A stretch of DNA of 64,000 nucleotides, taken from the NCBI GenBank assembly GCA_951406725.2, contig OX597823.1, positions 52,824,001 through 52,888,000 on the forward strand, read 5' to 3'. The DNA comes from Octopus vulgaris (lineage: Eukaryota). A program made the translations under genes and the position numbers. Within the stretch, counting starts at the first letter, position 1. Every line of letters begins with the position of its first letter. Below the pieces are notes generated by a model. It ran no database searches. It was not told where the DNA came from and was given only the letters and a program-made list of their open reading frames with translations. Below are positions 5,607 to 60,566 of the stretch, in pieces.

Positions 5607-6399
5607 GACATACTGGCTTATTCATTGTTCATCGATCTAATAGCTTTTCATCATTTATAGTTACCTTGATGTCTAAACACTTCAGTTGTTAATGTGTAGT
5701 TTTGTCACTGATGAGACATGTCTTTTCTTACTTTTACCAGTATTTCTGAGTTCATTTTTCTTTCAAATGTTCAAACTTCTCTCAACACTAAAATCACAGA
5801 AGTGAGCGGCGAGTTGCAAGGTCTTCTACTTTTGAAGGTTTGTTTGCAACTCTTCAAATTGATCTTCAGCTCATCTTTGAACCGTTTATTTGGTCCTCTA
5901 CCCAGTTGTTGACTATGGTACAGATGGCATTAACAGATTCTACAGAAGAGAGACAAATCACGCATGCACACTATATACAAATCAGTTATTCACACTACAT
6001 ACTCTGAATATGTCAGTTGGTATACAGTTCTCATACACTGAGGATGTAAATAAAACTCTGCTGTCTTTCTTTTATTTCTCTCTCGTCATCTTCACCTTGA
6101 AAAAGGTCTATGTCCGAAACATTGGCTACTTTAGTCTTCACAATAGTCTTTACATTACTATTTCTGACACTTTTTTTGAATTAATACAACTCTGACTGAC
6201 ACAGACCGCCATCAATTTCCTTGGATTCTGTTGTTATGTGTGAAGCATCAATAATGTTTCAGTGCTGCTAGTGTTGATTCGCTGAAACATTACTATGTGC
6301 ATAATCCTTTCTCTATCTGTCTACCAGTCTGTCTGACTCTGTATCTCTCTCTCTCTCTCCCTCTCTCTAGGTAATCAATATGATTTGTTGAAGAAAACT

Positions 6400-9200
6400 A
6401 AATATTAAAACTTTAAACTCAGGATGAAAAGTAAGGTCCATAGGTTTCAAAAGTAACTTTAAATTGTATAATAAAAATTACAATTCTGGAAGCGTATCAT
6501 GGAGTCAGTTTGTTGTTTATAGGGAAACGACATGTTGGTACATTGCTGATAAAATTGGTTGAAAGACTGATGAAGAGTAAAACCTTTTTATGGCACCAGA
6601 AGAAAATCTGACAATGTCATAATAGTATGGCTGTTAGACTGAGCCAGTGTATGTCAAGTGTCTCTGCCATGAATTCTGCAGTGCATCCAGAGAAGGATAT
6701 GAAATGCTAACCTTCACTGTTATAGTTGGACCGTCTATGCAACTTAATTTGCAATAATTCTTTACAGAATAAATTACTCAACAAAGAAGGGAAGTGTTTA
6801 TAACTTTACAAGGCCTTTCGGTTTTCACTGTCAACATCTATAGACAGCTACTTGTAATAAAAACAAGCTGGAAAGGCTTCAAGAACGATGTAGTTATAGA
6901 TAGAAAAGTTTAAATAAATGTAAATTTGGGAATTAGAGCTGAGACAAATTAAAAAGGAAATGAGATGTATGTAGGTGGTAACATCAGATGAGCTTAAAGA
7001 GAGGGAGTATTTGTATTACCCATTCTCAATGAAAAGTATATAGCTTTTGGTGGTCTTGATACTATTGAAGGAATCCACAGATTAAAAACTGTAAAAAAGG
7101 ATGGATGACTGATGCATTTGTTGAGGGTACAGCCGAAAATTGCAAGAACAGGAAACCAGAGGATTTTTGAATTCCTGAAAACCGAACCATTGAAATATTG
7201 AAGCAGTAATTTATGTTCAGATCATCATGAAGAAATAGTCAAAGGGCCAGAAAGCTGTTGTGACTGTTGTAGGGTAATAGACATTGCCCCAGAATAGAAC
7301 CTTAACATTAAGAAGCTTTTGCTGGTGACAAACAAACTTCTCTGTCTCTAAGTGCACAAGTATTTATTTGGATATTGACAGACAGACAACATAAAGCTTA
7401 AAATATGAATTAAATGTTAATCAAGATGCCTCCATCAAAAAGGTACTTTGAGAACAAAGAACAGTAAAAAAATAACTGAAGAAAATCATGAACAAGCGTA
7501 CAAGGTATATTATTACACTGTAAGAAATTATCAGAGATATATTGGCCAACAATAGATCATATGAATGGTGAGTGAGAAAGGTAGTTTCATTGACAACATC
7601 CATATGCTGAATTAATATTTCGGCAAGCCGTGGCTCTTGATTATCCCTGTCCAATCTGGAACCCAATATCCTGAAACTCATAGAAGAGTCTCAAGCTTAA
7701 GTATAGCATTAGGTTTTATAGATGCTAATTTCATGCATTCTTTTTTTTTTTCCTTATATTCTAGCCAGTATGTTGAAATATTTATGTTTGCTTGGTTTTC
7801 AAGAATATGTGATTTCAGTATTTCATTGGAGGGATGAGTGGAACCTGAAAACTGAGGTAGCCATGTTAAAAAAACATGAATTTGGCATTTTTAGAGGATC
7901 TGAGAAGCAGTTACAGTAGCAGTAGAAGAGTCATAGAGTAGAAACACATAATATATAAACTAGCAATTGTAGAGTATATAACTGGCAGTAATGACGGTCA
8001 ACGAGAATTTAAAATGTGAGAATTTTTTGCAACATATTTGAATTGTTGAGAGTAAAAGTGGTGAATCGGTAGTAGGTAAAGATTTATAAGAAACCTTTGT
8101 TAATCATTGTGGATAGAATAATTCAAAAGACTGATTGTTTAAAATATGTATTTTAATATATTCTGTCATTTCAATTTCTAAACAGAAATTTTTTGATTAT
8201 ATAAAGACTTTGCAATTTATTGGAGCATAATTTCTTTTATTTTTCTTTATTTCACTCTGTCCAGAAATGGAGTTTGGTTTTCAAGTTCATAGAATTTCCT
8301 CTGTGTTAGTGTTGTGGCAAGAACTAGTTTAATTCTTTTAATGTAACCGCCAACAGTTTCGTGTTGAAGTGAAACATTTTGAGTAGACAAGGCATTGGAC
8401 AACCCGTACGTGTGTAGGGGTGAGGAGAGTACACTTAATTCCATGTATTCCATTCCTTCTAATTTTGGGAAATATGTACTAAGTCTTCTGGGAATATTGC
8501 CTAGAGTAAATAGAATGATGTTCTCTGACCTAGGGAACGGAGGAAATTTTTTTGTCTCTTCTACTTAATACTGCAAAGTGCAGCGCTAATTATAGGCTTG
8601 ATGTGAATCTGTGTGCATTGTGAAGACGCTCAACTCATCATTATATCAATTATTTCTGTAGGTGAAATATATGCTGTGAATATACGTGGAAGAAAATAAA
8701 TCTAGTATGAGACAAAGACATAGTAGATACAATGGGAATGCTTTCATGGGGAAAGTTTGGACGCAAAGAATGGTTGGTGATAGGTGAAATGCTAAATATA
8801 TGGTAAGAGGATTGGGATAGTGCCAGAAAACTCCAAAGAAAAAGAAGCCATGATAGTAAGAGTAGAAATTGCTATGGAATTAGACTAGGAATTTGCTCAG
8901 AGAGAAGATTTTACAGTGAAAAAGATTTGCTTTTTGTTTGATTTTGAAGCAGTGCACTAAAGAATAGCCTGTGGTCTGAAAGATAGTAATCCTTAATTAA
9001 ATGGATTTTAGGCTTTCTATAATATTAGAAGGTATTCATTCACGGCTGAAGATAAAATAACAAATAGATTTTGGCTTGGAAAAAGTAGTTGTAGTCTTGC
9101 TTGAGACATTTTGACCAGTGTTAAATATATGTGCTCTATAAAGTCGGTTGGTGCTAACATCTGAATAGTGTCTTACTTTATTCAGAATATTTGTTCATCA
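6400..9200 (-). mobile_element. Possible heavily decayed L1/Tx1-like LINE
   Basis: Only faint frameshifted traces on the minus strand (AY-D-V near 7595-7610, KYL near 7360, L-E-T-L-L near 7685) in non-repetitive sequence. Weak. Confidence 0.25.
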
Positions 9201-9449
9201 TTGATGCAAACAAAATGAGTGTACGACTCGTGTCTTAAAGATAAGCAATATCAGCAACGTATTAATAGTGTAGATATACTCATTTTCTTTTCCTTACTTC
9301 AAAATATTGCTTCTCTTCTTTTTCTGTTTATCCTTCCTTACATCTTCTATTCTTTTGTTTTTTTATTCATTCATTCCTTCTTTCTATCCGTCTGTCTGTT
9401 CACCTGTTCACTATTTTTAACATTATTATTGGCGAAGAAGTCTTAATGT

Positions 9450-9632
9450 GGCTGCAAGAAATAGCAGATAACCTTCTACTGTCTTAAAAAGGATATATAC
9501 TAAATGGTCCTCGATACTCTATGTCTAAAATTTAAAAAAAAAATGAAAAATAGAATGGTCATGACTCTGGAGTGTCTTTTGATTACATGTCTGCATAATC
9601 AGAGCTGAACTAGGGTTAAAAACAACTACAAC
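9450..9632 (+). mobile_element. Old (CAA)n-tailed repeat, family E. Other copies at about 16820-17285, 20320-20500(-), 28650-28830, 42310-42490(-), 50130-50368, 50430-50605 and 50622-50793
   Basis: Shared gctagaaatagcagc...atggtcatg(g)ctgga...ctttgatcatagg tctgctc.atcag..ctga.ctagggctaaacaacaac. Confidence 0.65.
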
Positions 9633-9645
9633 TTTATAAGATAAT

Positions 9646-59276: not shown

Positions 59277-59733
59277 AGACGCAGGAATGGCTGCGTGGTA
59301 ACTAGCTTGCATACCAACTATATGGTCCCGGGTTCAGTCCCACTGCGTGGCACCTTGGGCAAGTGTCTTCTACTATAGCCTTGGGTCGACCAAAGCCTTG
59401 TGAGTGGATATGGTTGACGGAAACTGAAAGAAACCCGTCGTATATATATATGTATATATATATATATATAAATATATGTGTGTGTGTGTGTGTGTGTACG
59501 TGTGCGTGTGCGTGTGTGTGTGAGTCTGTGTTTGTCCCCCCAACATCGCTTCACAACCGATGCTGGTGTCTTTACGTCCCCGTAAATTAGCGGTTCGGCA
59601 AAAGACACCGATAGAATAAGTACTAGGCTTATAAAGAATAAGTCCTGGGGTCGATTTGCTCGACGAAAGGTGGTGCTCCAGCATGGCCGCAGTTCAAATG
59701 ACTGAAACAAGTAGAAGAGAGAAAAAGAGAGTA
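59277..59733 (+). mobile_element. SINE family A, full length
   Basis: All family A modules present. Confidence 0.92.
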
Positions 59734-60193
59734 AACAATTAGCAAGCTCTTTTTCACGATGAAAAAAAAAGCCCTTGCTCACGTCTAACATCTAATTATG
59801 CAACTGGTAGGCGATCGTCAAACTGACGGCGATCAATTACACATGTATGTGTGCGTGTGTCCGTATGCGTGTATGTGTGTGTGTGTGTGTGTGTGTGAGT
59901 ATGTGTTTGTGAGTGTGTGCGGATACGCGCGTCGAAATCTGCTTGCTTTTGCCTTGCTGCTCACTCTGGCAGGGATCATGCTTTTCTTTTTGTAAAAACT
60001 ACAGAAGGTAATTATAAGCAACTCGTACGAACGCTTTCAAAAGTAGTTATTACACTCATTTACAATCATTGAGATTAATAGACACAGAAAAGTATACATC
60101 TTTGTCCCAGTTCACATCTGGAAACTCAAAACACTAAAATATATTTACATTATTTACATTTGACGGATATTTGTCTTCATCTTGTTTGTTGTT

Positions 60194-60239
60194 AATACAG
60201 CGTTTCGGCTGAAATACCCTCCAGCCTTCATCAGGTGTC
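60194..60239 (-). ncRNA. Mutated hammerhead motif (second copy)
   Basis: GACAC-CUGAUGA-A-GGCUG gagggUAUUU CAGCC-GAAAC-Gc-U-GUAUU; U16.1 is changed to C. Confidence 0.6.
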
Positions 60240-60520
60240 TTGGAGAAACTTCGAACCTGTGTTCTTATTCCTAAAATATTTTTCGATGTTATTATTATTA
60301 TTATCATTATTATTATTATTATTATTATCATTATTATTATTATTATTATTATTATTATTATTATCATTATTATTATTATCATTATTATTATTATTCGAAC
60401 TCGGAATCTTGGGGTTAGTAGCCTGCGCTCTTAACCACTACGCCATGTGCCGCGGACATATGGCGTAATAACATCGAAAAATACCTAAGGAATGAGAACC
60501 CCGGTTCGAAATTTCTCCAA

Positions 60521-60566
60521 GACACCTGATGAAGGCTGGCGGTTATATCAGCCGAAACGTTGTGTT
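60521..60566 (+). ncRNA. Minimal type I hammerhead ribozyme motif, core intact
   Basis: GACAC(60521-25)-CUGAUGA-A-GGCUG/CAGCC stem II-GAAAC-GU-U-GUGUU(60562-66). Stem I is 5 bp, stem III is the palindrome ACGU, and the predicted cut is after 60561. Confidence 0.82.

Follow-up and report, generated by a model that had tools for sequence, protein, structure and literature searches.

A 64-kb stretch of the Octopus vulgaris genome (contig OX597823.1, positions 52,824,001 to 52,888,000; hereafter the window), AT-rich and dense in microsatellites and in repeats resembling short interspersed elements (SINEs), was examined for minimal hammerhead ribozymes and the repeats that carry them. Hammerhead-like sequence was present at all seven sites named in a first-pass annotation of the window, and sequence inspection located the cores at 6097–6123(+), 12340–12370(−), 13280–13310(+), 31089–31115(−), 33042–33075(+), 60199–60234(−) and 60526–60561(+). 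Every motif is part of a repeat family, here termed A (12–13 kb), B (31 kb), C (33 kb), D (60 kb) and E (6 kb). The annotation had assigned the motifs to the terminal repeats of several unrelated Penelope-like elements (PLEs), and both points were borne out: parents with an open reading frame (ORF) for reverse transcriptase (RT) and GIY-YIG endonuclease were found for A, B, C and D, whose PLE origin is practically certain, and the end cassettes could be aligned to each other only over stretches of 10–24 nt. The annotation did not list a decayed B copy at 2151–2362(+), a GIY-YIG remnant at 12565–12786 and a tRNA-like head at 60395–60451(−). The window-wide theme, minimal hammerheads at PLE ends, is already published (Cervera 2014). 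The new parts, as read from sequence, are an apparently tRNA-headed Poseidon-type parent of family D with a body free of shared runs of four T (T4) and a putative A9C lineage of family C. We consider it probable that A to D are minimal hammerheads of PLE terminal repeats and that the tRNA-Arg-like head on the pseudo-long terminal repeat (pLTR) of the dead Poseidon-type family D likely serves as an internal promoter for RNA polymerase III (Pol III).

Reality and abundance of the hammerhead motifs

The minimal type I core tested was C3 U4 G5 A6 N G8 A9, G12 A13 A14 A15.1 and U16.1 H17, applied strictly and then with one and two core mismatches, and 60 block-wise dinucleotide shuffles of the window served as control. 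The strict descriptor found two motifs in the window (60526 and 31089) against a shuffle mean of 0.05, and 0 of the 60 shuffles reached two. With one core mismatch allowed, 33042 was added and the three motifs stood against 0.10–0.42 in the shuffles, while with two mismatches the excess faded (3 vs 0.97, with 5 of 60 shuffles reaching 3). An excess over shuffled sequence was thus seen at zero and one mismatch, but only three of the seven named copies passed. The four failures were both A copies, which have a variant core, 60199, which has lost U16.1, and the decayed 6097. An Rfam scan of the window at E ≤ 10 gave no hammerhead family among the 150 of 158 matches listed, only microsatellite-driven matches of the microRNA type.

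Genome-wide counts cover the whole assembly (2.8 Gb, 227 contigs) and were controlled with the reversed pattern. The core with CGAAACGT gave 16,721 exact matches as against 385 for the reversed pattern; of the first 100 core matches listed, 55 belonged to D, 34 were B-like, 5 came from another family and 6 fell outside these groups. Patterns specific to single families yielded another 3,422 matches for C and 105 exact matches for A, and the pattern-intact motifs in the genome number about 20,000, in keeping with the very high count that the annotation had predicted. The window lies above the average density, holding 2 intact ACGU cores where 0.38 would be expected in 64 kb. Candidates were collected for D (3,216), C (730), A (1,215), B (2,262) and E (34). 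The annotation had expected such repeats to be largely missed by repeat annotation; families with copy numbers in the thousands would more probably have been mislabelled than overlooked. The four failures and the fading excess at two mismatches are what chance matches in AT-rich, repeat-rich DNA would give, but this explanation is refuted by the genome-wide ratio, by the conserved family layout that places each motif at the same position in PLE ends, and by the stem pairs, which differ between A and its young relative with pairing kept.

Stem III was supposed to be palindromic throughout, which applies to A, B and D and fails in C, where nearly every copy inspected had the imperfect AGAACU and none the AGUACU that had been proposed as its alternative. 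The stem III self-duplex amounted to +1.4 kcal/mol for AGAACU, −1.7 for ACGU and −8.3 for ACCGGU. Colonisation of (AT)n held for three of the families and not for D: (TA)n followed the 3′ end in 42/52 B, 42/54 C and 20/38 A copies and in 2/63 D copies. Within-family covariation is uninformative because single copies decay neutrally (D core 7.6% vs 9.2% at other non-CpG sites). Insertions of A, C and D bear marks of PLEs, namely the head-to-head inverted duplicate and an optional 3′ tail of about 30–55 nt; the PLE clade labels used here rest on motifs described in PMC8557442 and not on an RT tree.

The metazoan PLE pLTR hammerheads described in PMC4209133 likewise have a short stem I, an extra base after position 9 and palindromic 15.2–16.2 pairs, and they occur as many families per genome, mostly as single motifs of truncated PLEs, with inverted pairs 100–700 bp apart and a U3-A8 variant. 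The octopus differs from them in number, with about 20,000 pattern-intact motifs here and 2,000–9,000 there, and in having U·U in place of the conserved G10.1-C11.1 in A and C9 in C, neither of which is described in the text examined of that paper.

Family D and its Poseidon-type parent

At 60 kb, two family D tails lie in opposite orientation. The tail with the short 3′ end (60142–60288, −) contains the hammerhead at 60199–60234 and is joined through an (AAT)n linker (60289–60394, −), with the same layout in full-length copies and in the parent, to the tRNA-Arg-like head with A and B boxes (60395–60451, −; 93% to the D head), which folds back at about 60438–60466 into the opposite arm. The tail with the long 3′ end (60472–60665, +) has the intact minimal core at 60526–60561; an ATG at 60492 starts the N-terminus of the parent ORF with the frame running through the hammerhead, whose predicted cut follows 60561. 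Full D copies measure about 300 nt and consist of head, (AAT)n, ATG, hammerhead and tail, the (AAT)n belonging to the element itself.

The first 100 matches listed included 49 D loci; insertions were studied in 40 of these, 5 were treated separately and 4 were left out. The D head agreed with the tRNA-Arg(ACG) gene of this genome in 51 of 75 columns, with scores of 59–69 against shuffle maxima of 46–51. An A box was found in 12/14 and a B box in 10/14 heads, and both remain while the anticodon arm is unpaired. ARAGORN at default settings detected no intact tRNA in 15 D loci, and at a relaxed threshold gave a call that overlapped the head on its own strand in 6 of 20. Exact head matches numbered 2,274 in the genome and 0 for the control, and a tail was present in line within 600 nt of the head in 24 of 30 head-picked D loci. 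Elsewhere in the assembly (G000:C2:211.89–211.91 Mb), about 24 matches to the arm motif of tRNA-Arg(ACG) are clustered, several of them about 206 bp apart, probably as a tandem tRNA array.

Inverted duplicates were found in 22 of the 40 D loci, and 21 of these 22 had one long and one short end, differing by about 30 nt; pieces of ordinary SINEs showed inverted duplicates in 2/105, 13/141 and 14/223 cases. No consistent target-site duplication (TSD) was found in 20 full-length D copies, and the family is without the 3′ tail and TSDs typical of long interspersed elements (LINEs), its ends being of PLE type. The majority core of D is, like that of B, the standard one, and it is intact in 14 of 57 copies. 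Intact D cores number about 9,200 (55% of 16,721), and a rough estimate made at one chromosome end gives about 37,000 copies.

The parent of D is a dead Poseidon-type family (638 candidates, with best non-self hits at 80–87% to the query), the ORF of which has RT and GIY-YIG parts, the RVT_1 match (E 2.3e-6, 27.9 bits) being below the cut-off. Seven loci of A and its young relative, 16 Hydra-like loci and 20 loci picked by an RT motif did not include it, and a Poseidon-type fragment in the last set led to it. From 150 scored hits, 20 parent loci were chosen with a bias to long open frames. The D head lay in line after the parent ORF in 11 of the 20 RT-picked loci, with the tail also present in 10 of these, and the D unit begins 29 nt past the ORF stop. 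In tandem D copies (L414, L418) the tail lies directly before the ORF and encodes its N-terminus: an ATG 34 nt before the core starts a frame that crosses the hammerhead and continues into the ORF, and the predicted cut falls 70 nt after this ATG. The ORF-start frame is still open in 16 of 39 long D tails. The parent is without a CX2-5CxxC linker between RT and endonuclease (translations of L404, L411, L415 and L419), whereas the A, B and C parents have one; this fits the lack of (TA)n targeting in D, if the linker mediates targeting as hypothesised in PMC8557442. The short 3′ flanks of eight metagenome relatives of the parent (33–42%) contained no tRNA-like head.

The Poseidon element PAc of Anolis carolinensis (Frangieh et al. 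2024, PMC11167929) resembles D in that the ORF start overlaps the hammerhead, and it shares with D an optional tail, of 30–40 nt and derived from two RT start sites, and a lack of RNA-seq ends at the cut site. The D parent differs by its tRNA-like head and (AAT)n before the start codon and by its T4-free body; no tRNA module is described for PAc in the text examined (PMC11167929).

Proposed transcription and spread of family D

Among 89 head-bearing D copies, 63 had their 5′ end at −15 to +5 of the tRNA +1, 8 ended farther upstream and 18 inside the head. The 2.3-kb parent body contained 12 T4 runs in the 28.2 kb of 20 copies (0.42/kb), each at a different place and none common to copies; 7 other PLE ORFs had 1.7–6.3/kb and 8 metagenome relatives 1.3–7.9/kb. 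The concentration of 5′ ends at the head and the lack of shared T4 runs in the parent body suggest that D was transcribed by Pol III. That the short copies were made from transcripts starting at the head is more likely than not; that Pol III read the whole parent ORF is rather doubtful.

The PLE protein nicks AT-rich DNA and primes reverse transcription at two sites near the repeat end, which gives the optional tail (PMC11167929). Each inserted D copy that retains the head would be a promoter and source, and its transcript of about 300 nt would contain the 3′ sites at which the PLE enzyme starts reverse transcription, for which reason the end piece could have spread alone in the manner of a SINE. 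In tandem copies this promoter would drive transcription across the entire T4-free ORF. Family B, which has no tRNA head, probably spread likewise, with transcription beginning inside its pLTR. For cleavage the ribozyme would have to dimerise or be assisted by protein, and in the D parent the cut would separate the start codon from the ORF. Dimer cleavage of PLE hammerheads is weak even so (PMC4209133), and hammerhead mutants of the anole Poseidon still insert in vitro, its cleavage having needed protein (PMC11167929). The most far-reaching version of these events, which we put forward tentatively, would be that the D parent acquired a tRNA gene and used it as promoter, rid its entire 2.6-kb unit of Pol III terminators, was transcribed by Pol III and bred its own SINE, which outgrew the parent; breeding of a SINE would follow from the position of the promoter in the repeat left at the 3′ end of each insertion.

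Several observations weigh against Pol III transcription of D. Three unstranded RNA-seq runs of fragmented libraries, labelled as a related species, taken with one contig set from 24 records and searched for family D only, showed no pile-up of starts at the D head nor of ends at the cut site; cut ends need not be visible in libraries of this type. Matching D were 6,101–8,543 of about 12 million records, both strands were equal and 78–79% ran on into unrelated sequence, which places D within transcripts of the host and demonstrates neither Pol III transcription nor cleavage. A step in depth near the cut site was not counted, because it coincides with private mismatches of the reference copy. 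The 5′ ends of B are clustered as sharply as those of D although B has no tRNA head, so that clustering alone does not require Pol III, and a short palindrome at the 5′ edge of the D head could itself cause fold-back. The 89 ends are not independent, because the arms of an inverted pair share a junction, and the sample size of the T4 comparison is close to one, because the 20 parent copies share one ancestor; per copy, P was 0.00–0.06 under a third-position null and 0.05–0.25 with codon usage kept. The head was compared with tRNA-Arg(ACG) only, and no intact parent ORF was present among the 150 scored hits, the longest open frame being 569 aa. An uncapped Pol III transcript would also need cap-independent translation.

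The clustering in B and the lack of RNA-seq starts at the head also speak for another reading, in which the tRNA piece in D, with the same PLE origin, is an inert captured relic, the starts at the head being caused by a reverse-transcription stall with fold-back at the palindrome or by a Pol II start there, as is likely in B. In addition, fold-back junctions centred on the 5′ palindrome of the head are common, the palindrome is present already in the D parent, and the Penelope pLTR of D. virilis has an internal promoter (PMC8557442). The relic does not account for A and B boxes being kept in heads with an unpaired anticodon arm, for the parent body being without shared T4 runs, unlike the 7 PLE ORFs and the 8 distant relatives, or for the place of the head just ahead of the ORF start codon, where a promoter is expected. 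We regard it as somewhat unlikely, and as the most serious alternative to a Pol III promoter.

The first-pass annotation had also proposed non-autonomous, retrozyme-like units. B and D do behave as short non-autonomous units, but retrozyme-type arrays or circles were not supported. As non-LTR retrozymes, their tandem units would be cut by the hammerhead to monomers, circularised and copied from circles, and in favour of this B and D measure 200–300 nt, are non-autonomous and have type I hammerheads, while animal retrozymes have been proposed to derive from pLTRs (bioRxiv 10.64898/2026.07.22.740005). However, direct tandem units occurred at 1 of the 40 D loci and at none of 30 B loci, the elements do not end at the cut site but upstream of it by about 110 nt in B and 200 nt in D, and downstream of it by 55–100 nt, the hammerheads are minimal whereas retrozymes have the canonical form (PMC7229834), and no end-to-head joint of circle type was present among 15 of the 61 listed for D, in a library unsuited to circles. 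Animal non-LTR retrozymes share with B and D a short, (nearly) non-coding unit, the type I hammerhead and the relation to pLTRs, but they are defined by tandem units and circular RNA, and B and D are dispersed with inverted insertions of PLE type (PMC7229834; Li et al. 2026 bioRxiv). Copying of B and D as retrozymes is thus improbable.

R4/Dong and RTE LINEs have (AAT)n tails. D could therefore be taken for a tRNA SINE moved by such a LINE, with a hammerhead cassette inserting into (AAT)n, and several headless D tails do follow the (AAT)n of LINE-like ORFs; this is largely refuted and very improbable, as head and tail occur together in 24/30 loci, both lie within the parent PLE, and insertions are asymmetric inverted duplicates with no consistent TSD. 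The joined ORFs (L220, L224, L225, L233 and L248; 5 of 40 D loci), the (AAT)n tails of which pass directly into the headless D tails, are presumably of R4/Dong type; they were rejected as D parents, the joins lying at (AAT)n.

SINEs are normally taken to borrow the enzymes of LINEs. In D, a tRNA-headed SINE-like family is joined by sequence continuity to a Penelope-like parent, which amounts to a simple route of birth. If the parent captured a tRNA promoter and was transcribed by Pol III, SINE and motor would lie in one sequence and the partner would be a PLE, not a LINE. If Pol III read the parent ORF, the question arises of how an RNA lacking a cap came to be translated and of whether the hammerhead that spans the start codon acted as a gate.

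Among octopus SINEs, OR1 and OR2 reportedly have heads derived from tRNA-Arg. OK, OR1 and OR2 resemble D in their tRNA-derived heads and, compared by description only, D could be one of these SINEs or a separate family; OR1 or OR2 has been called a CORE-SINE (PMC4758252, PMC4824008), and the words Penelope and hammerhead are absent from both papers. In Schistosoma, SM-alpha and Sj-alpha (reviewed in PMC6765202) are short repeats in which, as in D, a Pol III-type promoter precedes a hammerhead, but they form tandems with canonical hammerheads, whereas the copies of D are scattered, their hammerhead is minimal and the repeat is physically the terminus of an autonomous PLE of its own. Literature searches turned up no publication that describes PLE ends with a tRNA head or hammerheads in octopus, although the supplements of PMC4209133 and PMC8557442, Repbase/Dfam/SINEBase, Lunse et al. 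2017 and Ohshima and Okada 1994 may already include the variants found here or family D. A word search of the main text of the O. vulgaris repeat annotation (PMC13282606) returned neither "hammerhead" nor "ribozyme".

Families A, B, C and E and neighbouring repeats

Family C lies at 33 kb as a 5′-truncated PLE end between (TA)n runs (32980–33202, +; 96% to the full-length L313), with core 33042–33075, A9C and AGAACU, and is preceded by an inverted copy of its optional 3′ tail (32939–32978, −; 90% to the L313 tail). The parent is a young linker-bearing PLE with full-length ORFs of 1,311–1,312 aa in tandem and inverted arrays and a GIY-YIG profile score of 21.1 bits, just below the cut-off of 22.6; a partial tandem (pLTR) arrangement was present in L311–L315. 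The 5′ ends are spread, and C consists of plain 5′-truncated PLE copies.

Position 9 is C in 3,127 of the 3,422 pattern matches. The 295 non-C9 matches comprised about 70 A and 30 T among 100 listed, from which about 200 A9 copies are estimated overall; the T9 copies are probably CpG decay of C9. All 13 hammerheads at five C loci with intact ORFs have C9 and U17, and A9 was found in 0 of 38 C cores of endonuclease-picked loci. Coding does not explain A9C, because the core sits upstream of the ORF. The A9C change is said to lower hammerhead activity, and we consider that it probably cripples cleavage. With 3,127 of 3,422 copies and all hammerheads of the intact-ORF loci being C9, the C lineage may spread with a crippled ribozyme, and since C expanded after A9C the hammerhead is likely dispensable for copying. 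Against this stand the lack of any measured A9C activity in the literature examined and a bias in the age contrast: identity to the intact C element is 93.5% for A9 copies and 97.1% for C9 copies, but most of the latter were chosen as best hits. A9 is part of the consensus core used for accepting hammerheads (PMC3088659), and the role of PLE hammerheads is stated as open in PMC8557442. In C, a natural A9/C9 pair exists in a family with intact ORFs, which makes this role directly testable.

Family A occupies 12–13 kb as an inverted arm with short 3′ end (12268–12571, −; blastn to the A parents L063 and L067), with the hammerhead variant at 12340–12370, and a direct arm (12565–13412, +; 82–89% to L063 and L067) that is a 5′-truncated linker-bearing PLE. 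In the direct arm the C-terminal GIY-YIG remnant (12565–12786; tblastn identity 47–55%, E 1e-15 to 1e-8) is followed by the 3′ untranslated region (UTR), the hammerhead variant at 13280–13310 and (TA)n. The longer copies L063 and L067 have RT, GIY-YIG and a CX4CxxC linker, and A, like C, consists of plain 5′-truncated PLE copies. Both window copies have U3 with A8 (in the copy at 13280–13310) or G8, U·U at the base of stem II and ACCGGU as stem III; in the family, U3 was found in 28 of 30 aligned copies, and position 8 is A, with G8 in 1 of 100 matches listed. A young relative (73% amino-acid identity, open frames of 776–847 aa) keeps U3-A8, U·U and ACCGGU while stem pairs change, and U3-A8 forms were found in further PLE families. 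Because the young relative and these families retain U3-A8, the variant core is conserved between families and not a product of decay. The U3-A8 swap itself is already published (PMC4209133; PMC3088659); what A and its young relative establish is a core variant that is conserved and yet not accepted by standard descriptors. This very young relative (L316–L319), of which many identical copies exist, has two frames that overlap and a GT-rich 3′ UTR of 2 kb, with a partial tandem arrangement in L316 and L319. More U3-A8 hammerheads occur in other young PLE families (L343, L358 and L341), with an additional A in the GAAA strand in L343 and L358.

The 31-kb cassette of family B (30994–31192, −), a terminal repeat of a linker-bearing PLE with a fixed 5′ start, has its core at 31089–31115 with stem III ACGU. 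A second cassette (2151–2362, +) has a decayed hammerhead and (TA)n at the 3′ end, and is 80–85% identical to the 31-kb copy and to other B copies. The whole cassette measures about 210 nt and its hammerhead is of the standard minimal form. The parent (L389/L392) has an ORF with RT and GIY-YIG and is colinear with the cassette at 81–84%. A minority of copies (538 candidates) extend upstream into a CA-rich UTR and, in 2 of 12 long loci, a linker-bearing PLE ORF. The 5′ ends of 11 of 17 incidental copies fell at −87 to −73 of the core, and no pLTR or partial tandem arrangement was seen for B, which is likely a solo pLTR transcribed from a start site of its own. A 955-aa Hydra-like ORF beside one B copy was ruled out as B parent, since it carries its own hammerhead. 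This ORF belongs to an intact Hydra-like PLE (L121:914–3778 and about 5810–5920) with the DKT and CxCX5C motifs described in PMC8557442, a 2.4-kb 3′ UTR, a hammerhead with very long stem II and 8-nt palindrome, and dozens of copies at 95–99%.

Family E (6050–6130, +) is an old short repeat with a decayed minimal hammerhead (core 6097–6123). All 34 candidates match it at 71–85%, and in most of the aligned relatives the core is again the standard one, with a G-C stem II. Neither a PLE ORF nor another parent of E was found in 20 E loci. The five matches of a further family among the first 100 core matches listed (L195–L197, L204 and L208) represent another short hammerhead cassette.

Two near-perfect inverted duplications in the window (25590–26381 and 11943–12259) consist of ordinary SINE-like repeat pieces with arms of 358 nt at 99% and 101 nt at 95%, and are not of the PLE head-to-head form. 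A 186-aa frame at 37116–37676(+) without Pfam hit is presumably a remnant of an R4/Dong-type RT. A long (CAC/CCG/CAT)n low-complexity tract at 55460–56650 gives rise to spurious poly-Pro/His/Thr frames.

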